Below the pieces are notes generated by a model, which saw nothing but the letters and a program-made list of their open reading frames with translations, did not search any database and had not been told where the DNA came from. From an uncultured Oscillospiraceae bacterium (lineage in GTDB: Bacteria > Bacillota > Clostridia > Oscillospirales > Acutalibacteraceae), in contig URFL01000003.1 in the NCBI GenBank assembly GCA_900547105.1, forward strand, positions 1-64,000: DNA of 64,000 nt, read 5' to 3'. Shown here one piece after another: positions 2,444 through 40,452 of this stretch; position 1 is the first letter of the stretch, and every line of letters begins with the position of its first letter. The position numbers and the translations under genes were made by a program.

Positions 2444-3043
2444 TTGATGGAAGAGTCCAAAAATCCCGAACAGGTCACCGAAACCGCCGAAACCGCACAA
2501 GCGGCAGCTCCGGAAACGGCGGCTGCCGAGGCTCCTGAGAAAAAGGAGCGCAAAGCGCATAAAAAAGACGCGAAAGACACGGCGGAGCACAAACGCCAGC
2601 AACACACGGTGGAGCTGGAAAATCTGAAAAAAGAGCTGCAAGACCAAAAAGACACCTACCAGCGGATGCTGGCGGAATACGCCAACTACAAGCGCCGCAC
2701 CGAGCAGGAAAAAGAACAGCTCGGAGCGTTCACCCGCGCCGAGGTGATCAAAAAGCTGCTGCCGGCGCTGGACAATCTGGAACGCGCCGCCGCCGCTCCC
2801 GCCGGAGAGGAATACAAAACCGGCGTGGTGATGACCATTCGCCAGCTGAACGACATTCTCAAGGAGATGGGGCTGGAGGAGATCGACGCCGAGGGTGCAC
2901 CTTTTAACCCGGAGATCCACAACGCCGTGATGCGCGAGGATGCCGACGGAGTGGAGCCGGACACGGTGACCGAGGTGTACCAGAAAGGCTACAAAATGGG
3001 GGATCGCGTGCTGCGCCCCTCGATGGTCAAGGTTGCAAACTGA
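2444..3043 (+). CDS. grpE: nucleotide exchange factor GrpE
   Basis: Operon position and GrpE-like C-terminal domain (…FNPEIHNAVMRED…KGYKMGDRVLRPSMVKV). The start is either TTG at 2444 or ATG at 2447. Confidence 0.9.
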   Translation: MMEESKNPEQVTETAETAQAAAPETAAAEAPEKKERKAHKKDAKDTAEHKRQQHTVELENLKKELQDQKDTYQRMLAEYANYKRRTEQEKEQLGAFTRAEVIKKLLPALDNLERAAAAPAGEEYKTGVVMTIRQLNDILKEMGLEEIDAEGAPFNPEIHNAVMREDADGVEPDTVTEVYQKGYKMGDRVLRPSMVKVAN

Positions 3044-3104
3044 TCGGCATATCCGATCGGATCGACACATATAACGAACGATAAGTATTTGGGAGGTAAT
3101 CTAT

Positions 3105-4922
3105 ATGGCAAAGATTATTGGTATTGACTTGGGTACGACAAACTCTTGTGTGGCTGTGATCGAGGGCGGCGAAGCCGTCGTCATCCCCAACGCGGAAGGC
3201 GCGCGCACCACGCCCTCTGTGGTCGCGTTCAAAAAAGACGGCGAGCGTATCGTCGGTCGCGTCGCGAAGCAGCAGGCGATCTCCAACCCGGAGCGCACCA
3301 TTTCGTCCATCAAACGCGAAATGGGCAACAACTACAAGGTGTCCATTGACGGCAAGGATTTCACTCCGCAGGAAATCTCTGCGATGATCCTGCAAAAGCT
3401 GAAACAGGACGCGGAAGCGTATCTGGGCGACACCGTGACCGAAGCGGTCATCACCGTTCCCGCTTACTTCACCGACGCCCAGCGTCAGGCGACCAAGGAC
3501 GCGGGCAAGATCGCGGGCCTGGATGTCAAGCGTATCATCAACGAGCCGACCGCCGCGGCGCTGGCGTACGGCATTGATAAAGAAAATGACCAGAAGATCA
3601 TGGTCTACGACCTCGGCGGCGGTACCTTCGATGTGTCCATCATCGAAATGGGCGACGGCGTGCAGGAAGTGCTCGCGACCGCCGGTAACAACCGCCTGGG
3701 TGGCGACGATTTCGACCAGAAGATCGTGGATTGGATGATCGAAGGCTTTAAGAAAGAGACCGGTGTGGATCTGTCCACCGATAAAATGGCGGTGCAGCGT
3801 CTGCGCGAAGCGGCAGAAAAGAGCAAGATCGAGCTGTCCGGCAGCACGACCAGCAACATCAACCTGCCCTTCATCACCGCCGATGCGACCGGCCCCAAAC
3901 ACCTGGATATGACGCTGACCCGCGCCGAGTTCAACAAGCTGACCGAAAGCCTGGTCGACGCGACCATGGGTCCGGTGCAGCAGGCGCTGAAAGACAGCGG
4001 TTTGTCCGCTTCCCAGATCGACAAAGTGCTGCTGGTGGGCGGCTCGTCCCGTATTCCGGCGGTGCAGGATGCGGTCAAGAAAGTGATGGGCAAAGAGCCG
4101 TTTAAGGGCATCAACCCCGACGAGTGCGTGGCCATGGGTGCGGCGCTGCAAGGCGGCGTGCTGGGCGGCGAGGTCAAAGGTCTGCTGCTGCTGGATGTTA
4201 CCCCCCTGTCGCTGGGTGTGGAAACCATGGGCGGCGTGATGACCCGCGTCATCGACCGTAACACCACCATCCCGACCAAAAAGAGCCAGATCTTCTCCAC
4301 CGCTGTGGACAATCAGCCGTCGGTGGAAGTGCACGTGCTGCAGGGCGAACGCGAATTCGCCAAAGACAACAAAACGCTGGGTGTGTTCCATCTGGACGGT
4401 ATCGCTCCCGCGCGCCGCGGTGTGCCGCAGATCGAAGTCACCTTTGATATCGACGCCAACGGCATCGTGAATGTCAGCGCGAAGGATCTGGGTACCGGTC
4501 GCGAGCAGGCGATCACCATCACCTCCAACACCAATATGTCCAAGGAGGATGTGGAAAAGGCCGTGAAAGAGGCCGAGCAGTACGCTGCCGAGGACAAACA
4601 GAAGAGAGATGCGGTGGAGACCCGCAACGCTGCCGACCAGTCGGTGTATCAGTGCGAAAAAGCGCTGGAAGAGCTGGGCGACAAGCTGGACGAAGCGGAC
4701 AAGACCTCCATTCGCGAAAAGACCGATGCGCTGAAAGAGGCGCTGAAGGGCGACAACGTGGACGACATCAAAGCCAAACAGGAAGAGCTGATGAAAGCCT
4801 TCTACGAAGTGTCCGCCAAGGTGTATCAGGCGAACGCTCCGGCGGATGGCGCCGCTCCGGATCAGCAGGGCAATGTGCCCCCCACCGACGGTGATGGCTA
4901 CTACAACGGGGATGTCCACTAA
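3105..4922 (+). CDS. dnaK: molecular chaperone DnaK (Hsp70)
   Basis: [18 protein letters not shown]…[10 protein letters not shown]… are canonical Hsp70 motifs. Length is 605 aa. Confidence 0.98.
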
Positions 4923-28871: not shown

Positions 28872-30296
28872 TTATTCTTCCGCCGGTTGTTCCGACGCCT
28901 CTTCCTGCGGAGCAGGAGCTTCCGGTGCCGCAGGGGTATCCAGCTCTTTTCCGAGGAACCCGGGGATCTGCATCCCCGCCATTTTGAAGGTTTCGTTCAA
29001 AGGCGGAATGGATTTCATCATGCCGGACAGGAAGTTCGCGGTGGTGGAACCACCCTCCTTGCCGCCCATCGAATCCCAAACCGTCACCTTGTCGATCTTC
29101 AGATTCTTGATCGCTTCCACCTGAATCTTGACCAGTTCCTCGATCTTGTCCGCCAGCATCAGCTGCACCGCTGCGTTGGCGTCGCCGCCCGCTGCCTCCA
29201 CGATTTTCTGGAAGCCTTCGGCCTGTTTCGCCAAAATCTCCTGAGCACCGCGCGCCTGCGCCTCCATGGTGGCGTAGATCGCGTCCGCTTCACCGCGCGC
29301 TTTGCGGCGGGTCTGCTCGGCTTCGGCTTCCGCCTCCAACTCCACCCGCTCTTTTTCGATGCGCGCTTTCACGATAACATCCGCCTGCTGGGTCGCCGCC
29401 TCACGCTCGGCACGCGCCTGCTCGGCCTGTTGCTGTGCAGCATATGCTTCTTCCAACGCCCGCGCTTCGGCGATCCGCTCGGCTGCGGTCGCCCGGCGCA
29501 TAGCCTCGGCCTCCGCCTCGCGACGAGTCGCATCCGACTGCGCCACGGCGGCTTTGGATTCGTTTTCACCGGCGATGGCGGCGGCGTTCGCCTCCGCCAC
29601 CTGAATACGCTGATCCTTGACCGCCTGCGATTCACCGATCGAACCGTCGCGGTTCTTTTCGGCAACCGACTTTTTCGCATCGTTGATCGCCTTGGCGGCC
29701 GCCTCTTTACCCAGCGCCTCGATATACCCCGACTCGTCGGTGATATCGGTCACATTCACGTTGATCAGCCGCAAACCGATCTTTTTCAGCTCGGTCTCCA
29801 CATTGTGGTACACCGCTTCCACAAACTTGTCGCGGTCGGTGTTGATCTCTTCAATATCCATGGTCGCGATGACCAGACGCAGCTGACCGAAGATAATGTC
29901 CTTCGCCAGCTCCTGCACCTCGACCATTTTCAGCCCCAACAGCCGCTCGGCGGCGTTCTGCATAGTACCCGGCTCGGTGGAGATACCCACCGTAAACCGC
30001 GAGGGCACATCCACGCGGATGTTCTGGTGCGACAGCGCGTTGGTCAGATCCACGTTGATGGAAATGGGGGTCAGATCCAGATAATCAAACGATTGGATCA
30101 CCGGCCAGATGAACGCCGCGCCACCGTGGATACACCGTGCCGAGCGCGCCGACCCGTCTTTGTTGGTGCCGACTTTACCGTAGATGACCATGATTTTGTC
30201 GGACGGGCACCGGCGGTACCGCGACAGCAGCACCAGCAGCAGCGAAAACAGCAGCACCCCGACCACGATCAGCAAGATAACAACATTGCTAGGCAT
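28872..30296 (-). CDS. flotillin-like SPFH/band-7 protein (FloT/YuaG family)
   Basis: N-terminal TM anchor, SPFH domain, then a long Ala/Glu-rich coiled-coil (…EAEAEAMRRATAAERIAEARALEEAYAAQQQAEQARAEREAATQQ…). Confidence 0.88.
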   Translation of the reverse strand: MPSNVVILLIVVGVLLFSLLLVLLSRYRRCPSDKIMVIYGKVGTNKDGSARSARCIHGGAAFIWPVIQSFDYLDLTPISINVDLTNALSHQNIRVDVPSRFTVGISTEPGTMQNAAERLLGLKMVEVQELAKDIIFGQLRLVIATMDIEEINTDRDKFVEAVYHNVETELKKIGLRLINVNVTDITDESGYIEALGKEAAAKAINDAKKSVAEKNRDGSIGESQAVKDQRIQVAEANAAAIAGENESKAAVAQSDATRREAEAEAMRRATAAERIAEARALEEAYAAQQQAEQARAEREAATQQADVIVKARIEKERVELEAEAEAEQTRRKARGEADAIYATMEAQARGAQEILAKQAEGFQKIVEAAGGDANAAVQLMLADKIEELVKIQVEAIKNLKIDKVTVWDSMGGKEGGSTTANFLSGMMKSIPPLNETFKMAGMQIPGFLGKELDTPAAPEAPAPQEEASEQPAEE

Positions 30297-30321
30297 ACAA
30301 ACTCCTTCTTTCTCTCTGTTT

Positions 30322-31026
30322 TTATTCTTCGTCCAACGGACGAACCACTAACACATTTTGATTCATCACACCGGTCACCTTGACCATTTCATCGGTGCGA
30401 AGATTGCGTTTGGCGGTGGTCACCGCGCTCAGCTCCACATACCGCTCCTGCAGCGTCATGGTGACTTTGCCGGAACGCTTGCCCTGTGCCGGAATGGGAA
30501 TATACACTTGGGCGGTTTTGCCCACCGCGCCGCGCAGATCCAGATTGCCCTGATCCTGCAGCGACAGGCTCCATTTGATAAACCACGCGGTCAGCAGCAG
30601 CGCCGCGGCGCCGCCCGCCACCGCAATGGCTATGACCGCGGCAGTCGCCAGCGTGGTTTCCGCCAGCGCAATGCCCAACCAGCCGCCAACCGCGAAAAAC
30701 GCCACCAGCCCGCGCACGGTGAACAGTCGCAGCCCCGCCGCGTGGTGCGCCGGATCGTGGGTATCGTGATCGTCTGCGTCATGGTCGTCATGGTCAAAGG
30801 CGTGTTCCGCGCCGTGATCGAACTCGTGCGCGTCGTGATCCCAGCCGTGGTCGCCCAATCCGCTGTGGTCGTCCGCCATTTCTCCGTGATCTGCGTCGTG
30901 ACCGCCCAGCCCGATCAGCAGCAGCACCGTTTGCAGCACCAGCATCACCGTTGCGGGAATCGCCACGACCGCGAAACTCTGCTGCAGCATATTCAGCGCA
31001 TTCCACCAATCATAAAACCATTGCAT
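30322..31026 (-). CDS. NfeD-like membrane protein (YuaF-like flotillin partner) with a His/Asp-rich insert
   Basis: TM segments plus a C-terminal OB-fold-like region (…VGKTAQVYIPIPAQGKRSGKVTMTL…VVRPL). Contains an approximately 60-aa insert, GHDADHGEMADDHSGLGDHGWDHDAHEFDHGAEHAFDHDDHDADDHDTHDPAHH. Confidence 0.75.
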   Translation of the reverse strand: MQWFYDWWNALNMLQQSFAVVAIPATVMLVLQTVLLLIGLGGHDADHGEMADDHSGLGDHGWDHDAHEFDHGAEHAFDHDDHDADDHDTHDPAHHAAGLRLFTVRGLVAFFAVGGWLGIALAETTLATAAVIAIAVAGGAAALLLTAWFIKWSLSLQDQGNLDLRGAVGKTAQVYIPIPAQGKRSGKVTMTLQERYVELSAVTTAKRNLRTDEMVKVTGVMNQNVLVVRPLDEE

Positions 31027-31070
31027 ACGCTTCCCTCCTTATTTTTCACTATATGTCGGCACCCCGACCC

Positions 31071-31646
31071 TTATCCGTTGTCTTCCTGAATCCATTTTTC
31101 CAGCCGTCCCTCCGCCAAATGCTTCATGCGGGATGCTTGATACGCCAGCACCATAATCTCCAGCGCCCGCGCCAGGCACGCCTTGGAATCCAGCTTGGGA
31201 CCGGTGTAATCCGCCAGCTGGCGCTGCACCGCCTCGCGGATTTCGGCGGTGGAGCTGCGCAGATCCGACAGATCCGCCAACAAGCTGCAAAGTCGGTTGT
31301 ACAGCTCGCCCTCGTCGATGATATCGTCCGACACATCCTCGACCGAGCCGTTGACCTTGCCCAGCAGCTGGGCAATTTTCTCCAGCGGCAAACAATCCCG
31401 CAGCACGTTGATGAGAAGAATGCGGGCGATCTGGCGCTGGGTATATTTTTTGCCCACCGGACGGGAAATCCACCCGCGTTTGACCCAGTTTTGGATGGTG
31501 GACGCCTCCAGCCCGGTGATTCCGACAATTTGGGACAGGCTGAGTCCTCCCGCCACATTGCACAGCGACGAAACAGCGGCAAACAATTCTTTGCCCGCGC
31601 TGGGGTCATACGGCATCACGGTGCCGGGTATAGTCGTCAACTGCAT
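31071..31646 (-). CDS. DUF1836-like HTH-domain protein (putative regulator of the flotillin operon)
   Basis: N-terminal MerR-like HTH (LSLSQIVGITGLEASTIQNWVKRGWI). This family commonly lies upstream of floT/nfeD in Firmicutes. Confidence 0.6.
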   Translation of the reverse strand: MQLTTIPGTVMPYDPSAGKELFAAVSSLCNVAGGLSLSQIVGITGLEASTIQNWVKRGWISRPVGKKYTQRQIARILLINVLRDCLPLEKIAQLLGKVNGSVEDVSDDIIDEGELYNRLCSLLADLSDLRSSTAEIREAVQRQLADYTGPKLDSKACLARALEIMVLAYQASRMKHLAEGRLEKWIQEDNG

Positions 31647-32401: not shown

Positions 32402-34165
32402 TTATTTCAGATTGTTTTCCAGCGTGTTCAGCTCGGCGGTCAGTTCAGCCGGCAGCTTGTCGCCAAACTTGCTGTAGAACTGTTTGATGCCGTCCAGCTC
32501 GTTCGCCCACAGCGATTTGTCCACTTCCAGGATCGACTTCAGCGTGTCGATCGAGAAGTTGTCCAGACCCTCGAGGTTGATATCCTCGGCGTTCGGCACA
32601 TAACCGATCGCGGTCTCGTTCGCATCCGCTTTGCCTTCGCAGCGTTTGATGATCCACTCCAACACACGCAGGTTGTCGCCGAAGCCCGGCCACACGAAGT
32701 GACCCTCGTCGTCGGTGCGGAACCAGTTGACATTGAAGATCTTCGGCGCTTTGTCGCCCAGCTTCTCGCCCATTTCGATCCAGTGTGCCCAATAATCGGC
32801 CATATGATAACCGCAGAACGGCAGCATCGCCATCGGGTCGCGGCGCACAACGCCCACAGCGCCGGTCGCGGCAGCAGTGGTTTCGGAAGCCATGATGGAG
32901 CCTACGAACACGCCGTGGTTCCAGTCACGCGATTGATACACCAGCGGAGCGGTTTTGGCACGACGACCACCGAACACGATCGCGGAGATCGGCACGCCGG
33001 TGCCCGAGTTGAACTCCGGAGAGATGCAGGGGCAATTTTTCGCCGGCGCAGTGAAACGGCTGTTGGGATGAGCGCCTTTGGAACCATCGGTGCAATCCCA
33101 TTTCTCGCCCTTCCAGTTGAGCGCGTTTTTCGGCGGGTTCTTGTCCAGACCCTCCCACCACACGGTGTTGTCGTCCAGGTTGTGGGCAACGTTGGTGAAG
33201 ATGGTGCCCTGGCGGGTAGAAGCCAGCGCGTTGGGGTTGGATTTTTCGTTGGTGCCGGGAGCCACGCCGAAGAAGCCGTTCTCCGGGTTGACCGCCCACA
33301 GGCGACCGTCGGGACCGATGCGCATCCAGGCGATATCATCGCCCACGCACCAGACCTTGTAGCCTTTCTTCTTGTACAGCTCCGGCGGGATCAGCATAGC
33401 GAGGTTGGTCTTACCGCAAGCCGACGGGAACGCCGCGGCGATGTATTTGATCTCGCCCTGCGGATTTTCCAGACCCAGAATCAGCATATGCTCAGCCATC
33501 CAGCCCTCTTTACGACCCAGGTTGGAGGCAATACGCAGCGCGAAGCATTTTTTGCCCAGCAGCACGTTTCCGCCGTAACCGGAGTTGACCGAGATGATGG
33601 TGTTATCCTGCGGGAAGTGGCAGATATACCGTTTGCTTTCGTCGATATCGCATTTGCAGTGCAGACCGCGCACCCAATCGTCGCTGTCGCCCAGAGCATC
33701 CAGCACATTCTGGCCCACACGGGTCATAATGGCCATGTTCAGCACCACATAGATGGAGTCGGTCAGCTCAATGCCGTATTTGGCAAAGGGCGAACCCACC
33801 GGACCCATGGAGTACGGGATGACATACATGGTGCGACCCTGATAGCTGCCGCGCGCAATGTCGTACAGCATTTTATAGGCTTTCGCGGGCTCCATCCAGT
33901 TGTTGGTCGGGCCGGCGTCTTCCTCTTTCTCGGCGCAGATAAAGGTACGATCCTCCACACGCGCCACGTCGTTGACAGCGGTGCGATGCAGATAGCAGCC
34001 CGGCAGTTTTTCCTGATTCAGTTTGATCATTTCGCCAGACTGGCAAGCCTCGGCGCGCAGCGCCTCCAGCTGTTCCTCGGAGCCGTCGATCCACACGACT
34101 TTGTCGGGGTTGACCAGCTCTTTTTTCTCTTCGATCCAAGACAGAACCGATTTGTTGTTCGTCAT
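32402..34165 (-). CDS. pckG: phosphoenolpyruvate carboxykinase (GTP)
   Basis: MTNNKSVLSWIEEKKELVNPDKVVWIDGSEEQLEA… and kinase-1a-type motif (…FPSACGKTNLAM…) fit GTP-dependent PEPCK. Start at 34165 with RBS aaagggg. Confidence 0.95.
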   Translation of the reverse strand: MTNNKSVLSWIEEKKELVNPDKVVWIDGSEEQLEALRAEACQSGEMIKLNQEKLPGCYLHRTAVNDVARVEDRTFICAEKEEDAGPTNNWMEPAKAYKMLYDIARGSYQGRTMYVIPYSMGPVGSPFAKYGIELTDSIYVVLNMAIMTRVGQNVLDALGDSDDWVRGLHCKCDIDESKRYICHFPQDNTIISVNSGYGGNVLLGKKCFALRIASNLGRKEGWMAEHMLILGLENPQGEIKYIAAAFPSACGKTNLAMLIPPELYKKKGYKVWCVGDDIAWMRIGPDGRLWAVNPENGFFGVAPGTNEKSNPNALASTRQGTIFTNVAHNLDDNTVWWEGLDKNPPKNALNWKGEKWDCTDGSKGAHPNSRFTAPAKNCPCISPEFNSGTGVPISAIVFGGRRAKTAPLVYQSRDWNHGVFVGSIMASETTAAATGAVGVVRRDPMAMLPFCGYHMADYWAHWIEMGEKLGDKAPKIFNVNWFRTDDEGHFVWPGFGDNLRVLEWIIKRCEGKADANETAIGYVPNAEDINLEGLDNFSIDTLKSILEVDKSLWANELDGIKQFYSKFGDKLPAELTAELNTLENNLK

Positions 34166-34405
34166 AATACAAAATCCCCTTTCGCGAAATTTCGTGAACG
34201 CCTTTATTATAGTGTGTTCCTGTCGGAATGGCAATATCCAAATTGTAAAGAATTTGATAATTTTTTGACGATTATTGAGAATTCTGCATATTCGCGCGTA
34301 AAATCCTGCAAATATGGCTCATCCTCGCGACAAGAAAAAACACTGGACTACATCTATCTTTCATAAGTAGAAGTAGCCCAGCAGTCCTAATTTGTTTCTC
34401 AAGTG

Positions 34406-34858
34406 CTAGATCGCCGCTTGCGTTTTCTTGTCAAAAATCCGATTTACAGATTTCACCTTATTATCCAGTTGGCGAACGATTTCGTTGCCCTCTTCTGCAA
34501 TCTCTCTGGCATCCTCTTCGCAGTACGGGTTCTTCATCAGGCTATGGATATATGCATCTCGGCGGTCCTTCCATGTCCAAATCTCATCAATAAATGAGAG
34601 CGGAATTCTTTTACGAATTTGCTTATCCGTAAAAGGTGCGCTGTCATGTATTTTATTCAGCTTGATGCTAAGTTTCAATGGGTGACCTTGTTTATTTGTT
34701 AACTTTATGGTCCCCTCATGACGCAAAACCGATTCAGTTCTGTCTTCGATCATGGCGTATTCGATAAAAACTGCCTCAAGCCAAAAGCCATGCCTCAGTG
34801 CTTTGGAAAGCTTCACCTTGTATTGGGCGTATGTATATTGCTTGTCCGTGTTGTTCAT
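34406..34858 (-). CDS. hypothetical protein (150 aa), distal gene of the low-GC island
   Basis: ORF with RBS ggagggg before MNNTDKQYTYAQYKVKLSKALRHGFWLEAVFIEYAMIEDRTE…. No domain recognised. Codon usage is AT-richer than the flanking genes. Confidence 0.6.
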   Translation of the reverse strand: MNNTDKQYTYAQYKVKLSKALRHGFWLEAVFIEYAMIEDRTESVLRHEGTIKLTNKQGHPLKLSIKLNKIHDSAPFTDKQIRKRIPLSFIDEIWTWKDRRDAYIHSLMKNPYCEEDAREIAEEGNEIVRQLDNKVKSVNRIFDKKTQAAI

Positions 34859-34941
34859 ACCGTTCCCCTCCGGTTTGTTTTCTCCTTTTGGCACCTCACC
34901 GGAAAGTATATATTCTCACATGTGCTCACCTTTTGTGCCGA

Positions 34942-37341
34942 TCACGGCTTTTTAAAATAAAGAAAGTCACTATATTCCGTTGTGTCAGTATTTCCGTTAG
35001 TGTGAGTATACACTTTTATCGTACAATTACCGTTGTTATCGTATGTATATTCCGTTTCACATATAGCGTCGTTAGAATACACACACACTTCTTTCACACG
35101 GTTTCCGTTATCATCATATTTGTACTCCGTCGCGTTCATAAAGCCGCTATACCCTGTACAAACTTCTTTTATACAGCTTCCTTTATTATCGTATGTGTAT
35201 CTCGTCGTACTTATGCCGCCACCAGCACCTGTAAATACTGCCTCCACACAATTTGCATTGTCATCATATTTGTATTCCGTTGTGCTTGAATAGTCTCTGG
35301 AATTCGCATACACTTCCTTTACACAATTTCCATTGCTATCGTATTCGTATTCCGTTGTGCTTGTATCTCCACTATACCCTGTACAGACTTCTTTCACGCA
35401 GTTTCCAGTATTATCATATTCGTACTCCGTTGTGCTTATATCACCATCAAAGGCCGTGTCAACTTTTTTCACACAATTTCCATTGTTATCGTATTTGTAT
35501 TCTGTCGTACTTATTCTACCATTATATTCCGTGTGTACTTCACATTGCGGCTTCGAAAGAATCGAGCGGTAATAGTTCACAGCATCCTTATAGCCGCCCG
35601 CTGCATAAAATTGAGCACGGGCTTCTCCGTACTTTCCGGCGTTGTATAACTCCATACCCGCATTATACTTGTAACTTGGAATAACGACTGTTGTCAGCAC
35701 AACAACAAGGGTAATGCAAGCAGCAATAATCGGCATCCCGATAGCAAAGAATTTTCTGCGCGCCTTTTTGGCTTTTTCCTCTTCTATTTTAATCTGCTCA
35801 ATCTTCTTTTGGCAGGCATACACCTGCTCATCCGCATCTTTCCAGCCAGAAATGGATTGAAACAACTCGATGGCTTCCTCATAAGCGCTGCTATCCTCGC
35901 CCACCATCTGTGACTTGGCCGAACCATATAGGGCATCTTTTCGACAGCACTCTGCTTTGTCGAAGCACTCCTCCGCAAGCTTCTTCGAATCTTTAAATTC
36001 TCCAACACTCTGAAAAGCCTGCGCAGCCGCTTTATACGCCTCCTCCGTATCGGCGGAATTCATGGCGTTGACCGCCCCGTTATATACATTGGTCAGTCGC
36101 TCATTTTCGTTACGTTGATTGATATACGCAATATAGTCGTTCATTGTTTTCGTCAAGGTGGGGTCGGCAAACCGCAACACCTTATGAAAATTGCTGCTTT
36201 TATCAAAGGGGTGTTTACAGTTCTTTAATTGCCCTTGCTCGCGCACACGCAGCTCCGCCATCAGTTTGCCCAAATACGCGCGCGCATTTTCCGGATCCTG
36301 ATCCAGCACTTTTTCACAATAGGCATCCGCCTCCTGCCAATCACCGTCTTCCAAAAACATAAAAACCCGTTTCAAAAGCGGTTCCACGCTTACATTACCG
36401 CTATCCATCACCACGGTTTCCTGAACCGTTTTCTTGGGCATATCCGCCGAAACAATTTTCTTAATTCCCCGAATCAAATCCTGCATAAACCCGAGTTTGG
36501 ACATATCTTGCGCCTGTAGATGAGAAAATTCTTCGGGCAAATCGTAAGGATCCATATCCTTGTAAGCGGGAATCAGCGTTTTTTTGCCGCCGCTGTTCTT
36601 CACCAATGCCAAATACCGGCTCCACTCGTTTTTCACCCAGACAGCATTAAAATACTCCGGCTTTGTACCCAGTACTACCATAACCTTTGCACTGTTAAGA
36701 GCAGCAAATATATACGGCTCATACGCCGTGCCCAGTTTGTCCTCCAAAGTGATGCGAGCAAAGAACACCTTGAAGCCTTCCTGCGTCAGCTGGTGGTACA
36801 TATCGTTGGCAAGCACACTGTCTTGGGTACGACGACCGCTAGCATCCGTTTCCTTGTAACAGATAAATATGTCAAAAGGTTGTTCTTTTTGAGAGATAGC
36901 CAAAATACCCTTTTGAATCTCGTTGATGGTTTGTGCTTCCGACTCGTAAATCTCTCGCTGAACAGCATCGGCATATCGTAGGGCAGATTTATAGTTATCA
37001 TCATCAAAGACCGATGTAAACTGCGCTCGATTTACCGTAGGTATACGCTTATGCGAACCCGGATCCTCCACATATTCAATACCATAGCGGCAAAGCACCA
37101 GAGACCAATACGCCTCGGCATCCGTCTTGTCCTCGGTCAGGATTTGCTCATATATCCCCATGGCTTTGTCATATTCATTGCTGCGCCGAAAATGATTGGC
37201 TCGATCATAAAGATTTGCCCGCCGATCATCATCCAATTTGGGCAAGGTTTGCTTGGTGCCGCAGCTGTCGCAAACAGCTACGGTGTCACCGGGGTGAAGT
37301 TCCAGTGTCCCTCCGCACATTTTGCATTTGAATACTGTCAT
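34942..37341 (-). CDS. multidomain TIR-domain protein: N-terminal zinc ribbon, TIR domain, TPR-like helical region, single TM helix, C-terminal YD-like tandem repeats (799 aa)
   Basis: Zinc ribbon MTVFKCKMCGGTLELHPGDTVAVCDSCGTKQTLP. TIR-like block FDIFICYKETDASGRRTQDSVLANDMYHQLTQEGFKVFFARITLEDKLGTAYEPYIFAALNSAKVMVVLGTKPEYFNAVWVKNEWSRYLAL. TPR-like region (…AYCEKVLDQDPENARAYLGKLMAELR…). TM helix FFAIGMPIIAACITLVVVLTTVVIP. About 7.5 repeats of around 25 aa (ISTTEYEYDNTGNCVKEVCTGYSGD), matching the YxYDxxGN YD-repeat core. RBS aaggag. Confidence 0.8.
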   Translation of the reverse strand: MTVFKCKMCGGTLELHPGDTVAVCDSCGTKQTLPKLDDDRRANLYDRANHFRRSNEYDKAMGIYEQILTEDKTDAEAYWSLVLCRYGIEYVEDPGSHKRIPTVNRAQFTSVFDDDNYKSALRYADAVQREIYESEAQTINEIQKGILAISQKEQPFDIFICYKETDASGRRTQDSVLANDMYHQLTQEGFKVFFARITLEDKLGTAYEPYIFAALNSAKVMVVLGTKPEYFNAVWVKNEWSRYLALVKNSGGKKTLIPAYKDMDPYDLPEEFSHLQAQDMSKLGFMQDLIRGIKKIVSADMPKKTVQETVVMDSGNVSVEPLLKRVFMFLEDGDWQEADAYCEKVLDQDPENARAYLGKLMAELRVREQGQLKNCKHPFDKSSNFHKVLRFADPTLTKTMNDYIAYINQRNENERLTNVYNGAVNAMNSADTEEAYKAAAQAFQSVGEFKDSKKLAEECFDKAECCRKDALYGSAKSQMVGEDSSAYEEAIELFQSISGWKDADEQVYACQKKIEQIKIEEEKAKKARRKFFAIGMPIIAACITLVVVLTTVVIPSYKYNAGMELYNAGKYGEARAQFYAAGGYKDAVNYYRSILSKPQCEVHTEYNGRISTTEYKYDNNGNCVKKVDTAFDGDISTTEYEYDNTGNCVKEVCTGYSGDTSTTEYEYDSNGNCVKEVYANSRDYSSTTEYKYDDNANCVEAVFTGAGGGISTTRYTYDNKGSCIKEVCTGYSGFMNATEYKYDDNGNRVKEVCVYSNDAICETEYTYDNNGNCTIKVYTHTNGNTDTTEYSDFLYFKKP
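34955..35545. repeat. 75-bp tandem DNA repeats encoding the YD-like repeats of the TIR protein
   Basis: Visible near-periodic repetition (…acacaatttccattgNtatcgtatttgtattcNgtcgtacttat…). Explains the spurious + strand ORFs at 35033-35684. Confidence 0.8.
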
Positions 37342-37417
37342 TGAAGATTACTCCTTAATGAAACGAGATTTATGAAGAGTGCTTAGATATCAGGGCTGTT
37401 ATATTTATAAAATATAT

Positions 37418-38086
37418 CTATTTCAGCATTTTGCATTTTTTATTTCGCTCATCTAAAAGCGAATGAAGTTCAGCGACAACCTCCGTTTTATCGACAGCAG
37501 CTTTCAATTCGATCATCTTTTCTGTGATCCGGCTTTCTAAACCAGCGAGTTGCTCATGGCTCACAGGATCGGAGAACCGAATTTTCTCCGCAAGCTGCCC
37601 AAGCGCCGATTTTATGGCTGTATCCGTTTCTGTATCAGCCAACAGTTCAACCTCCGTCTGCAACTGCTTGATATAGAAAGTCTTTTTCTGTATCTTTGTA
37701 TCCACTCGTTCAATTTCGCTGCGTCCGGCATCCGAAGCAATCATACAAACCGCAGATACCCCGGTTATCACTGCACAAGCCACAACGGCGCTCCAAGCCG
37801 GCAGCGCCGAAACGAACAGAAACACTGCAAGCGCAACAACCTGAATCACCAGATAGACCGCGCCAATATAAACGACCGGAAAGCCAAGGAACTTGCTTTT
37901 CATTGTTTCTTCGCGTTCAAGCGCTATTTTCCAAATAAACAGCTGTGCTGCAAAGGCTACCACGGTGAATCCGTAGGCAATCCAAAACGCCGCGGTTTTA
38001 GCCGTGGGCACCACAAACGCAACAACGCTTATCAATACAAACAGAATGCCGAGAACGGCATATCCCTTTGCACTATTCTTTTTCAT
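37418..38086 (-). CDS. membrane protein (4 TM) with C-terminal cytoplasmic coiled-coil; partner of the SPFH/zinc-ribbon protein
   Basis: Start MKKNSAKGYAVLGILFVLISVVAFVV at 38086 (RBS agggagg), separated by 2 nt from the stop of the upstream SPFH gene. Coiled-coil tail (…QLQTEVELLADTETDTAIKSALGQLAEKIRF…). Confidence 0.7.
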   Translation of the reverse strand: MKKNSAKGYAVLGILFVLISVVAFVVPTAKTAAFWIAYGFTVVAFAAQLFIWKIALEREETMKSKFLGFPVVYIGAVYLVIQVVALAVFLFVSALPAWSAVVACAVITGVSAVCMIASDAGRSEIERVDTKIQKKTFYIKQLQTEVELLADTETDTAIKSALGQLAEKIRFSDPVSHEQLAGLESRITEKMIELKAAVDKTEVVAELHSLLDERNKKCKMLK

Positions 38087-38088
38087 TG

Positions 38089-39258
38089 TCAGCCCTCCCT
38101 CTTCGCGCCGCACTGCGGGCAAAACTTGCCGGACTTGATAAACTTAAAGCCACACTGCGGGCAAGTATCCGCGGATGTCTGCCGGGCACCGCATTCATCA
38201 CAAAACGCCGCGCCCGGAGCTAACTCGGCACCACACTGATCGCAAAAGCGATTGACCGCTTGCGGTTGTGTGGTCATTCCCGCAAATGCGTCAGAAACCG
38301 CACCGCCGACCACTCCACCAACTGTGCCGCCAACGCCAGCCATCATTCCCAGTCCGATACCCATATTGGAAAACTGCCCTGCGCCCTCATTTTTCGCAGC
38401 ATCCTGTGCCACATCGAATCCTCGCTCCTGCTGGTAGGTATAGCCTTCCTGCATTCGCTTGGTGGCTTGTGCCTGAGAATCGATAACAACCTTTTGCGCC
38501 TCGGTCTGTGCGTGGATCACATCGGTCTGCTGTTTCAGCTTTGCCTCGGCTATATCGGCATACTGTCGGAAATGCAGCTCCTTGAATTTTTCATACTGCG
38601 GGTCACCGTCCGGCTTGACCACCGTAGTAACATAGAATCGTTTGAGTTGTACACCGTAATCAAGAAAATCGGGAATCAATCGCTGCTGAATGTCCTCTGA
38701 AAATGTTTCAAGACTTTCATCAATCTCAAAAATGTTGATAGCATTAGCACGCATTGCCTGAGCGATATAGGTTTTCACCTTTGTCATCAGGATACTGCGA
38801 AAATAGGCGGTCAGCCGCTCACGAGTCAGAACATGCTCTGTGCCCACCAATTTAATTAACAATTTACGGGAATCGTCCACGCAAAGCGACATCTCACCGC
38901 TCGCGCCGATAGAAAGCGGGAAATGATATGTAGGTTCTACATACTGCACCTTGCTGTCAGTTCCCCAGCGAATCGCCATCTGTTCGGTCTTATTGATAAA
39001 ATAGACCTCGCAATGAAATGCGCTCACACCACCGGTTGGAATATTTATCAAGCGTCGAAAAATTGGAATGTTTTCCGTTTCTAGCGTATACCGTCCCGGT
39101 CCAAACAGGTCAAGCGCCTGCCCATTTAGGAAAAGAATAGCCTCCTGCGATTCGTGGACAATCAACTGAGATGATGTGTTAAAGTCCTCGCAGGGATGTT
39201 TCCATACAAAAGTGCTGTTATCCCCTTCGTATTTGATAACAGAGGCAATATTTGCCAT
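38089..39258 (-). CDS. SPFH (band-7)-domain protein with C-terminal double zinc ribbon (COG4260 / B. subtilis YdjI-like, 'virion-core-protein-like')
   Basis: MANIASVIKYEGDNSTFVWKHPCEDFNTSSQLIVHESQEAILFLNGQALDLFGPGRYTLETENIP is the characteristic N-terminus of this family. Gly-rich linker, then CDQCGAEL…CDECGA…CPQCGFKF…CPQCGA. RBS gaggggg. Confidence 0.85.
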   Translation of the reverse strand: MANIASVIKYEGDNSTFVWKHPCEDFNTSSQLIVHESQEAILFLNGQALDLFGPGRYTLETENIPIFRRLINIPTGGVSAFHCEVYFINKTEQMAIRWGTDSKVQYVEPTYHFPLSIGASGEMSLCVDDSRKLLIKLVGTEHVLTRERLTAYFRSILMTKVKTYIAQAMRANAINIFEIDESLETFSEDIQQRLIPDFLDYGVQLKRFYVTTVVKPDGDPQYEKFKELHFRQYADIAEAKLKQQTDVIHAQTEAQKVVIDSQAQATKRMQEGYTYQQERGFDVAQDAAKNEGAGQFSNMGIGLGMMAGVGGTVGGVVGGAVSDAFAGMTTQPQAVNRFCDQCGAELAPGAAFCDECGARQTSADTCPQCGFKFIKSGKFCPQCGAKREG

Positions 39259-39391
39259 ATCGCAACCCCCTCAATTTGTTATTGTGTACTTTTTCAAACT
39301 CCTATGTAAATTTTAACTTGTTGACATTATACTACTAAAAGGCTGAAATCTCAACTGTTTTCGGGAAAATAGTTTCAACATACAGAACACC

Positions 39392-39428
39392 CCAAAAAGG
39401 CAGGCTCCGGTGGGAGCCTGCCTTTTGC
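39392..39428 (-). terminator. rho-independent terminator of tsaD (also insulates the island promoter)
   Basis: aaaaaggcaggctccggtgggagcctgcctttt. Confidence 0.8.
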
Positions 39429-39444
39429 GTTTCTATTCTCTATT

Positions 39445-40452
39445 TCAGCTGTCGATCGGCATGGTCGCGCAAGCGTTGAGATCCCATCCGGCGGTGTGAC
39501 CGGCGGCGAACTCATAATACGCCTGGGCACCCACCATGGCGGCGTTATCGCCGCACAGCGGCAGCGGCGGCACATACAACGGCAGCCCCCGCTTTTCACA
39601 TTCCGCGGTCATGCGGCGGCGCAACTCCCGGTTGGCGGACACACCGCCCGCCAGCACGATCTGTTTCGCGCCGGTTTCCTGCGCGGCGCGCAGCGTGTGG
39701 TCGCACAAAATCTCCACCACCGTGTGGCGAAAAGATGCCGCCAGATCCGGCACCGGCAGCGTTTCACCCTTTTGGCTGGCTTGATGCAGCCGGTTAATGA
39801 CCGCCGTTTTCAGCCCCGAAAAGCTGAAATCATACGCGCTGCCCTCCACCTTCGGGTGCGGGAAGGTGAACGCGGTCGGATCGCCGGTTTCAGCGATCTC
39901 GTCCAGATGCACCCCACCGGGATAGGACATACCCATGGCACGGGCAGCTTTGTCAAAGCACTCGCCCGCCGCGTCATCCCGCGTGCGCCCCAGCACCCGA
40001 TAGCGGGTATAATCCTCCACCATCACCAGATGGGTGTGGCCGCCCGACACCACCAAGCACAAAAACGGCGGTTTCAGATCGGGATGCGCCAGATAGTTGG
40101 CGGCGATATGCGACCGCAGATGGTGCACTGGGATCAGCGGCTTATTCGCGGACATTGCCAGCCCTTTGGCAAAGTTGACCCCTACCAGCAGCGCACCGAT
40201 CAGTCCCGGCGCATAGGTGACGGCGATGCCGTCCACCTCGTCCAGCGTGATCCCCGCCTGCTCCAGCGCCTGCCGCGCCACGGTGGAAATCGCCTCGGCA
40301 TGGCGACGCCCCGCGATTTCCGGCACCACACCGCCGTATTGTTTATGCTCCTCCACCTGGGTCGCCACCACATTGGACAGCGCCTCGCGTCCGTCGCGCA
40401 CCACTGCCGCCGCGGTTTCGTCGCAGGACGATTCGATCGCTAAAATGTTCAT
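39445..40452 (-). CDS. tsaD: tRNA N6-adenosine threonylcarbamoyltransferase TsaD
   Basis: MNILAIESSCDETAAAVV…HHLRSHIAAN… is the Kae1/TsaD family signature. Confidence 0.95.
   Translation of the reverse strand: MNILAIESSCDETAAAVVRDGREALSNVVATQVEEHKQYGGVVPEIAGRRHAEAISTVARQALEQAGITLDEVDGIAVTYAPGLIGALLVGVNFAKGLAMSANKPLIPVHHLRSHIAANYLAHPDLKPPFLCLVVSGGHTHLVMVEDYTRYRVLGRTRDDAAGECFDKAARAMGMSYPGGVHLDEIAETGDPTAFTFPHPKVEGSAYDFSFSGLKTAVINRLHQASQKGETLPVPDLAASFRHTVVEILCDHTLRAAQETGAKQIVLAGGVSANRELRRRMTAECEKRGLPLYVPPLPLCGDNAAMVGAQAYYEFAAGHTAGWDLNACATMPIDS

Follow-up and report, generated by a model that had tools for sequence, protein, structure and literature searches.

A YdjI-family SPFH gene and a four-transmembrane partner form the core of a strain-variable gut-Clostridia cassette carrying a membrane TIR protein

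Why should a gene for a TIR-domain protein lie directly behind genes for an SPFH protein and a small membrane protein? The question is raised by a run of four minus-strand genes in an uncultured Oscillospiraceae bacterium (GenBank assembly GCA_900547105.1, contig URFL01000003.1, positions 1 to 64,000; this 64-kb stretch is referred to as the window, and all nucleotide coordinates without a locus name are its own). They encode a 389-aa soluble SPFH protein of the YdjI family (gene 1, 38089-39258), a 222-aa protein of an uncharacterised family with four transmembrane (TM) segments, a candidate membrane anchor for the former (gene 2, 37418-38086), a 799-aa single-pass membrane TIR protein (gene 3, 34942-37341) and a 150-aa HEPN-like protein (gene 4, 34406-34858). 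An earlier note on this DNA had viewed the first two as a ydjH/ydjI-like pair, and the TIR protein as occupying the place of a YdjG-like partner in a membrane-integrity sensing scaffold. We find that the pair is the conserved core of an undescribed, strain-variable cassette of gut Clostridia. In the form seen here, with membrane TIR and HEPN-like proteins, we give about even chances to the cassette being a new membrane-linked immune or conflict module. This reading is the most likely one; two rivals, a scaffold resembling the phage-shock-protein (PSP) system and a surface-sensing module, are both live.

The N-terminal part of the gene 1 product, which begins MANIASVIKYEGDNSTFVWKHP...SQLIVHESQEAI, matches the Pfam family Band_7_1 (PF13421) over aa 26-217 (nt 38608-39183) with E 6.1e-35 and 121.2 bits, where the cut-off is 24. 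After this domain come a helical stretch, a linker rich in Gly and Met and a pair of zinc ribbons (aa 338-386, nt 38101-38247; Pfam DZR, E 1.1e-9, and also Zn_Ribbon_1), the CxxC pairs of the ribbons starting at residues 339, 353, 366 and 380; the earlier description of a 389-aa SPFH protein ending in four such pairs is accurate. No hydrophobic or TM segment is predicted in this protein. For comparison with the pspA-ydjGHI operon we used the Bacillus stercoris locus (L010), retrieved via a ydjG primer from the literature (PMC8581546). With B. stercoris YdjI, gene 1 shares 29% identity over 214 aa (E 6e-17), and it is the sole match of YdjI among all open reading frames (ORFs) of the window (phmmer, E 8.7e-17). 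The two proteins have a common layout, with one zinc ribbon in YdjI and two in gene 1. The domain match, the similarity to YdjI, the zinc ribbon, the linker and the lack of a TM segment identify gene 1 as a soluble YdjI-family SPFH protein, as had been proposed. Its homologues number thousands in public metagenome and genome assemblies, with 81-91% identity among the 120 matches listed. No NCBIfam model matches gene 1, and no related solved structure is detectable by sequence.

The parallel proposal that gene 2 is YdjH-like did not survive. YdjH is a TPM-domain protein (PMC11237479) and matches TPM_phosphatase (PF04536) with E 1.1e-23, whereas gene 2 has no TPM domain, a BLASTP E of 2.7 against YdjH and an hhalign probability of 0.9% when a 19-sequence family alignment is used, the aligned part being one TM helix only. 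Relationships to YdjG and to the 234-aa protein encoded beside the window's flotillin gene were likewise rejected, the latter by hhalign, and the best Pfam score, to UbiA (E 0.036), is far under the cut-off. Public gene calls place the start at ATG 38086 (222 aa); the mechanical ORF list extends the frame to TTG 38122. AlphaFold2 (AF2) predicts TM helices at aa 4-25, 32-55, 71-91 and 97-~120 and a C-terminal helical bundle at aa ~121-222, with a confidence score (pLDDT) of 83-87 in the bundle and 63 for the whole model. The earlier description as a coiled-coil protein with four TM segments is right as to the membrane part and loose, if acceptable, as a name for the bundle. Both termini are probably cytoplasmic, since the N-terminus and the loop between the second and third helices are rich in Lys and Arg. 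At most, gene 2 is an analogue of YdjH in position and function, a candidate membrane anchor. Its family is large: 1804 clusters at 90% identity were matched in our search.

What gene 2 does have is a constant companion. Among 85 loci with members of its family (80 from metagenomes, one from IMG/VR and four fetched earlier), every one contains an SPFH gene, and in 80 the downstream gene product opens with CxxCG...CxxCG; the remaining five are truncated contigs or carry a fused gene. The products of these third genes begin with a common zinc ribbon and TPR hairpin and then diverge into quite different bodies: a coiled coil, ankyrin repeats with CFI-box-CTERM, BspA-type leucine-rich repeats (LRRs) with CFI-box-CTERM, TM segments with DUF5640, or TIR. 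Gene 2 accordingly represents an uncharacterised four-TM family that constantly accompanies such SPFH genes, and the third position of the cassette is held by interchangeable proteins under a common zinc-ribbon and TPR head.

Gene 3 has this head. Its first ~82 residues, comprising a zinc ribbon (C6, C9, C24 and C27) and a TPR hairpin, are 30-35% identical to the heads of non-TIR third genes (E 1e-4 to 1e-6). Because it bears this head, the TIR protein is the partner itself and no substitute: it is the cassette's own zinc-ribbon protein with a TIR-bearing body. The idea that it replaces a missing YdjG-like zinc-ribbon partner fails on this point. A profile of the head family does align with the first zinc ribbon of YdjG (hhalign 80%, E 1.4e-5), over 34 aligned aa only, and gene 3 itself gives a BLASTP E of 0.021 against YdjG; the match is short and therefore weak evidence of common descent. 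Past the first ribbon, neither BLASTP nor hhalign finds any similarity between gene 3 and YdjG, which also has a second zinc ribbon, a YpeB/NTF2-like domain and a C-terminal TM segment (PMC11237479).

Three further features of these cassettes deserve mention. Many non-TIR third genes (L016, L024 and L053, for example) end in CFI-box-CTERM (NF041770, E ~1e-21), placed after ankyrin, LRR or helical bodies. A conserved ORF of ~82 aa (MDYSELLERANTHIS...GEKLSF) lies between the TM and zinc-ribbon genes in 14 loci (L013, L019-L021, L033-L038, L050, L063, L069 and L070). Genes 2 and 3 are fused into a 580-aa frame in two chimpanzee-gut loci (L004:9176-10918 and L006), in comparison with L003 and L005, where an A-run near the end of gene 2 is 1 nt shorter and the stop codon is kept; the assemblies come from two animals. 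This fusion could be real slippage or a homopolymer error in assembly, and as Rosetta-stone evidence we downgraded it to a weak hint.

In the window the four genes look like one operon, because they combine a promoter-like site, translational coupling of the first two genes, a lack of internal terminators and a terminal hairpin. The promoter-like sequence TTGAGA-17-TATAAT (39326-39354, minus strand), an 11/12 match to the sigma-70 type and the best of the region, lies upstream of gene 1, faces it, and is found directly past the terminator hairpin of tsaD (39395-39426, minus strand; an inverted repeat of 14 bp without mismatch, closed by a 4-nt loop and flanked by a T-run). The junction of genes 1 and 2 reads ...GAG GGC TGA CA ATG AAA..., which agrees with the 2-nt spacing of stop and start reported before, and the ribosome-binding site of gene 2, AGGGAGGG, is inside the 3' end of gene 1. 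Genes 2 and 3 are separated by 76 nt and genes 3 and 4 by 83 nt; no convincing terminator was found between any of the four. A terminator-like hairpin (34335-34387, minus strand; -27.1 kcal/mol, z = -3.2 vs shuffles), followed by the U-run UGUUUUUU, closes the operon. The flanking genes are tsaD (39445-40452) and a gene for GTP-dependent phosphoenolpyruvate carboxykinase (PEPCK; 32402-34234).

Could the SPFH pair and the TIR gene nevertheless be mere co-residents of the same stretch, unrelated to each other? Two observations would suit such a chance adjacency: the gap of 76 nt between genes 2 and 3, as against the usual 15-20 nt in related cassettes, and the fact that genes 1 and 2 are nearest to non-TIR cassettes, gene 3 to cassettes whose SPFH protein is of a type with a SHOCT tail. 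Because the two parts are nearest to different cassette types, the window operon is a recombinant, an origin that fits the wide gap. Chance is contradicted by synteny. In the nine other loci examined that encode close homologues of the gene 3 zinc-ribbon-TPR-TIR protein, a Band_7_1 gene is always present, and eight show the order SPFH gene, ~230-aa gene 2 homologue and one to three TIR genes (L094/95, L096, L097, L098, L099, L105, L106 and L107, the last an IMG/VR contig); the ninth, L108, has the order TIR gene, gene 4 homologue, Band_7_1 gene. Among the SPFH partners of these loci, identity runs from 75-78% (those with a SHOCT tail in place of the zinc ribbons) down to 35-46% (those with extra N-terminal zinc ribbons), and the TM partners share 30-32% identity with gene 2 (E 1e-20 to 1e-45). 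One locus (L098) even has TIR-type and coiled-coil-type third genes in a single array, beside a SIR2_2 gene. Since the arrangement recurs with divergent SPFH and TM partners, the link between SPFH and TIR genes is robust within the TIR subfamily of gene 3, and the earlier claim that the pair is tied to the TIR gene is upheld. Given also the cassette-specific head of the TIR protein and the absence of a terminator between the genes, we consider chance adjacency highly improbable.

The TIR loci show some peculiarities of their own. Two or three tandem zinc-ribbon-TPR-TIR paralogues occur in L094:5817-10815, L097:4027-11008, L105:6001-11186 and L106:5013-9811, with highly conserved cytosolic parts and divergent DUF6273 ectodomains. 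Gene fragments lie between such paralogues (e.g. L097:3295-3528 and L098:8738-8908), a sign that recombination or the shuffling of cassettes may be frequent. Defence-type neighbours are also seen. L098 encodes a SIR2_2/AbiH-like protein (2447-3397) with weak matches to the SIR2 domains of LmuA and ThsA, and a type I restriction-modification (RM) methylase gene (HsdM) is found near the TIR locus of L105 (12579-14132). A 211-aa protein encoded between the TM and TIR genes of L094 (5169-5804) and L106 (4365-5000) has an RDGFAHG motif and a sub-threshold match to HEPN pEK499_p136 (E 0.0018).

What kind of protein, then, does the cassette carry in the window? Gene 3 encodes, in order, the zinc ribbon, a TPR, a TIR_2 domain, more TPRs, one TM segment and an ectodomain of YD repeats. 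The TIR_2 domain spans aa 158-282 (nt 36496-36870; Pfam E 2.1e-11), and Pfam also recognises RHS_repeat and TPR. Its WVKNE motif, with Glu239 at nt 36625-36627, is invariant across 11 paralogues and orthologues, the TIR domain as a whole being highly conserved by inspection; such strict conservation of a Glu at the catalytic position suggests an enzymatic use. The best sequence match in the PDB is the TIR domain of TLR15/TLR2 (E 1e-4), in which WCQYE stands opposite WVKNE. The TM segment is within aa 529-559 (nt 35665-35757), just after a KKARRK stretch, and ~190 aa on its far side consist of 25-aa YD repeats (aa ~612-790). The predicted topology is N-in, C-out and receptor-like. Over the cytosolic 530 aa, thousands of proteins from metagenome-assembled genomes of Acutalibacteraceae/Oscillospiraceae share ~78% identity with gene 3, and among these the ectodomains are swapped: DUF6273, RCC1-type propellers or YD repeats. 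DUF6273 is a C-type-lectin-like domain and a known target of phage diversity-generating retroelements (PMC10743442).

At the DNA level, the YD units of 25 residues correspond to a tandem repeat of 75 nt (family D1; 35008-35521, minus strand), present in six copies that are 63-73% identical. Variation in repeat number could occur, as 774-aa cluster members exist beside the 799-aa form.

The operon is not a fixed part of the genome. Contigs of sister strains whose TsaD protein is the same as here match the window at 98-99% identity as far as 39388 and resume this match at 34313; these breaks in homology therefore delimit a 5.07-kb island (34314-39387) between tsaD and the PEPCK gene, which holds the whole operon, the tsaD hairpin lying just beyond its edge. 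Contigs with identical TsaD are of two types, either identical to the window or with an alternative cargo at the site. The latter, present on about half of the long contigs of this kind, is a 2.2-kb segment of 46.5% GC encoding a 548-aa LRR_5-dockerin protein and an XRE-type helix-turn-helix protein (L100/L101/L103:9067-11233). The island has a GC content of 45.5% (42-50% over the four genes), against 57.8% and 62.9% in its flanks (57-65% for the range), and the operon is a strain-variable accessory island. No convincing att-like direct repeats were found at its ends, and no RNA element in it matches Rfam at E <= 0.1.

Related cassettes point to a more unusual form of variability. A site-specific recombinase gene lies upstream on the same strand in 44 of the 59 related loci with sufficient upstream sequence (mostly a serine resolvase/invertase, sometimes a tyrosine recombinase) and ends 175-450 nt ahead of the SPFH gene in all but one of the loci that have it. 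The space upstream of the SPFH gene contains a segment of 115-280 bp between inverted repeats of 14-22 bp (the loci with recombinase or invertible segment were drawn from L013-L092, L094, L096, L097 and L106). One orientation of the segment aims a -10/-35 pair at the SPFH gene, and both orientations occur in different assemblies in five sequence groups, including the TIR loci L094:2837-3311 and L097:697-1171; L048:1462-1665 and L060:4623-4826 share an inverted match of 143 nt at 100% identity, and L015 and L065 form a further inverted pair. Since the segment is found both ways round, it is an invertible promoter and the cassette family is phase-variable. The window seems to hold a relic of such a switch. 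Its right inverted repeat, TTTGAAAAAGTACAC (39284-39298, minus strand), is retained, and AAAAGTACAC is invariant when this repeat is aligned with those of the switch-bearing loci L037, L054, L057, L076 and L080; the promoter-like site described above aligns with the promoter-carrying segment of the related switches. The left repeat, at the island edge, has degenerated, the promoter points into the operon, and the window has no recombinase gene. We read this as a promoter switch locked ON.

A non-TIR version of the cassette (SPFH, TM and zinc-ribbon-TPR-coiled coil genes) resides on the 20.5-kb Butyrivibrio fibrisolvens plasmid pNP21 (L104, NZ_CP146965.1:6700-10053), next to genes for a type I RM S subunit, a resolvase, the toxin-antitoxin pair YoeB/RelB and an ArdC-like protein; the plasmid's annotation shortens the TM gene. 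Neither gene 2 nor the TIR head has matches in annotated phages, and since IMG/VR yielded only a single contig with gene 2 and two with the TIR head, we rejected the view that the cassette is typical phage cargo.

These features raise the possibility that the cassette is a phase-variable module for surface sensing or colonisation, in which the ectodomains would serve to recognise ligands from the host, from glycans or from neighbouring cells, receptors would be clustered by the SPFH platform and the TIR domain would act in signalling or metabolic adjustment, with no anti-phage role. The invertible promoters and adjacent recombinases ahead of related cassettes are what such a module might be expected to have, as are the receptor-like N-in/C-out topology, the exchange of ectodomains on a highly conserved cytosolic part, the tandem paralogues, the C-type-lectin-like fold of DUF6273 (PMC10743442) and the LRR-dockerin surface protein that serves as alternative cargo at the hotspot. 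However, many third-gene products of the wider family are fully cytoplasmic, having neither TM segment nor signal peptide; the strictly conserved Glu at the catalytic position suggests an enzymatic use; and the HEPN-like gene together with SIR2, RM and toxin-antitoxin neighbours suits conflict better. We hold this explanation to be unlikely.

A second alternative takes the likeness to pspA-ydjGHI at face value: the cassette would be an envelope-stress or membrane-maintenance scaffold that recruits a PspA/IM30-like protein encoded elsewhere, the TIR protein being one of several clients or regulators and not an immune effector. Gene 1 is a true YdjI homologue of equal architecture, with a soluble Band_7_1 SPFH part, a low-complexity linker and a C-terminal zinc ribbon. 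In both systems membrane proteins adjoin, one of which has an N-terminal zinc ribbon and a TM anchor (PMC8581546, PMC11237479). The YdjI protein of B. subtilis requires membrane partners and recruits PspA (PMC8581546), and among the third genes of the cassette are many for long coiled-coil proteins, for which a part in remodelling membranes is conceivable. Against this, the operon of the window has no pspA, and its gene order is reversed relative to ydjG-ydjH-ydjI. Searches of all six-frame ORFs of the 64-kb window with Bacillus PspA gave a best E of 0.47 (phmmer; a single-sequence search of limited sensitivity, so that a very divergent homologue, or one elsewhere in the genome, is possible), in keeping with the earlier remark that no pspA is visible; no YdjG or YdjH homologue is detectable within the same 64 kb. 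The four-TM helical-bundle protein of gene 2 is unrelated to the TPM-domain YdjH, and the zinc-ribbon partner has only the ribbon in common with YdjG, carrying TPR, TIR and ectodomain instead. Moreover, pspA-ydjGHI is a sigma-W stress operon, whereas the present cassette is accessory and in its relatives phase-variable and partly plasmid-borne, which is unusual for housekeeping stress repair; it is dispensable, other cargo being found at its site in sister strains, and it comes with TIR and HEPN-like genes here and SIR2 in relatives. Such a maintenance scaffold seems to us improbable.

Turning to immunity, the closest known systems are those built on TIR proteins. Thoeris and other TIR anti-phage systems are likewise small accessory operons, the gene 3 TIR has a Glu at the same W-x-x-x-E position, and a SIR2-domain neighbour is seen in relatives. 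Yet the gene 3 TIR falls far under the family cut-offs: PADLOC reports ThsB1 only (15.9 bits, E 0.0013), and the NCBIfam model ThcB4 scores 27.8 bits against a cut-off of 220. It belongs to a protein that spans the membrane once and has an ectodomain, no adjacent gene encodes an effector with a recognised signal-binding domain (SLOG/STALD, Macro and similar), and SPFH and four-TM partners occur in none of the Thoeris types described in the preprint 10.64898/2025.12.03.692087. Membership of a known defence system was rejected, as PADLOC and NCBIfam gave no family-level match. All in all, the module shares one homologous protein and the zinc-ribbon motif of a second with ydjGHI, and a generic TIR domain alone with Thoeris. 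In PADLOC 2023 and the literature searched, which did not extend to subscription journals, neither an association of SPFH with TIR genes nor invertons ahead of SPFH genes is described, and no match was obtained for SPFH with anti-phage defence or for COG4260.

Analogies from farther afield may help to see how the parts could work together. In HflK/C-FtsH, stomatin-NfeD and flotillins, SPFH assemblies enclose or regulate membrane clients. As there, the SPFH gene of the window shares its operon with genes for a membrane partner of its own and for a membrane client, which suggests that the SPFH protein might be a scaffold controlling the oligomeric state of the client; gene 1 differs in being Band_7_1 and not Band_7 and in having no TM or hairpin anchor of its own, and the client is a TIR protein instead of a protease. 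Animal Toll-like receptors, too, join an ectodomain rich in repeats to a cytosolic TIR domain through one TM segment. This is an analogy only, since gene 3 has the opposite topology (N-in, C-out) and an unrelated ectodomain, and resembles them at the general level of TIR domains.

The assignment of gene 4 bears on the same issue. Its family comprises 437 clusters at 50% identity, and its motif, EDR...W..RRDAYIH, includes Arg100 and His105 (nt 34544-34561). Across 40 diverse homologues, R40 (of EDR), W96, R100 and H105 never vary (W..RNxLIH), corresponding to an Rx4H motif of HEPN type. A scan of 40 members against Pfam gave seven sub-threshold matches, spread over the HEPN models RiboL-PSP, Cthe2314, Csm6 and Swt1. 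Because neither the Pfam scan nor the profile search revealed a significant match to a described family or PDB entry, the HEPN-like label is provisional. The single-sequence AF2 model is unusable (pLDDT 46), no sensor domain is recognisable in gene 4, and hhalign rejected a relationship with the HEPN-like protein of 211 aa in L094. The gene 4 homologue that sits between the TIR and Band_7_1 genes of L108, an independent locus, has 223 aa.

Several signals of the conflict type thus come together: the invariant Glu of WVKNE, the swapped ectodomains, the recurring HEPN-like gene, the accessory island and the recombinases with their inverted segments, along with SIR2_2, HsdM, an RM S subunit, YoeB/RelB and ArdC as neighbours in related loci. 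Coupling of membrane-integrity sensing to a TIR effector, as first proposed, remains a reasonable conjecture. In an immune or conflict module of this kind, the SPFH protein would oligomerise beneath the membrane, with the helical bundle that gene 2 extends into the cytoplasm as its base, and the resulting platform would bind the zinc-ribbon and TPR head of the TIR protein, holding the single-pass receptors apart or poised. An envelope event, such as phage adsorption or injection or the capture of a ligand by the YD-repeat ectodomain, might then let the TIR domains cluster and cleave NAD+ or produce a signalling nucleotide. The HEPN-like protein might serve as an RNase co-effector, and the attacked cell would cease to grow.

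Other considerations weigh against an immune function. PADLOC yields no match for genes 1, 2 and 4 and nothing beyond the 15.9-bit ThsB match for gene 3. The conserved Glu is no proof of NADase activity, as TLR TIR domains share it, and the HEPN assignment is built on a motif and sub-threshold matches. Invertons control surface structures more often than immunity. The third genes of most cassettes have no recognisable toxic effector, and the core platform therefore need not be immune. The TIR loci were picked by likeness to the gene 3 TIR and represent one subfamily, and the interactions among the three proteins are those that synteny would suggest.

The bolder proposition, that the SPFH, four-TM and zinc-ribbon-TPR-TIR proteins form an unrecognised class of membrane-resident immune receptor, switched by invertons and widespread in human-gut Oscillospirales, is one that we put forward tentatively and with more doubt than conviction. 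If it were true, single-pass TIR receptors would be gated by an SPFH platform of the YdjI type, and their hypervariable ectodomains, made of YD repeats, lectin-like DUF6273 or RCC1, would sense contact with phages or competitors at the surface. SPFH proteins are near-universal, and their bacterial clients are mostly unknown; here scaffold, anchor and exchangeable client are encoded together as a defined three-partner system, and the client can be an enzyme-type TIR protein. Should the module be immune, it would tie membrane microdomain scaffolds to TIR signalling, provide a bacterial receptor with a TLR-like layout of ectodomain, TM segment and TIR domain, and imply that abundant gut Clostridia toggle such a system by invertons. 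If it is not, a large uncharacterised four-TM family is still defined as the partner of YdjI-type proteins, and the tempting analogy with YdjH is corrected.

The cassette is not the only SPFH locus of the window. A second, unrelated one, 4 kb off on the same strand (28872-31646), encodes a 191-aa DUF1836/MerR-like protein, a 234-aa protein without family match and a 474-aa flotillin-type Band_7 protein (PF01145; 28872-30296).

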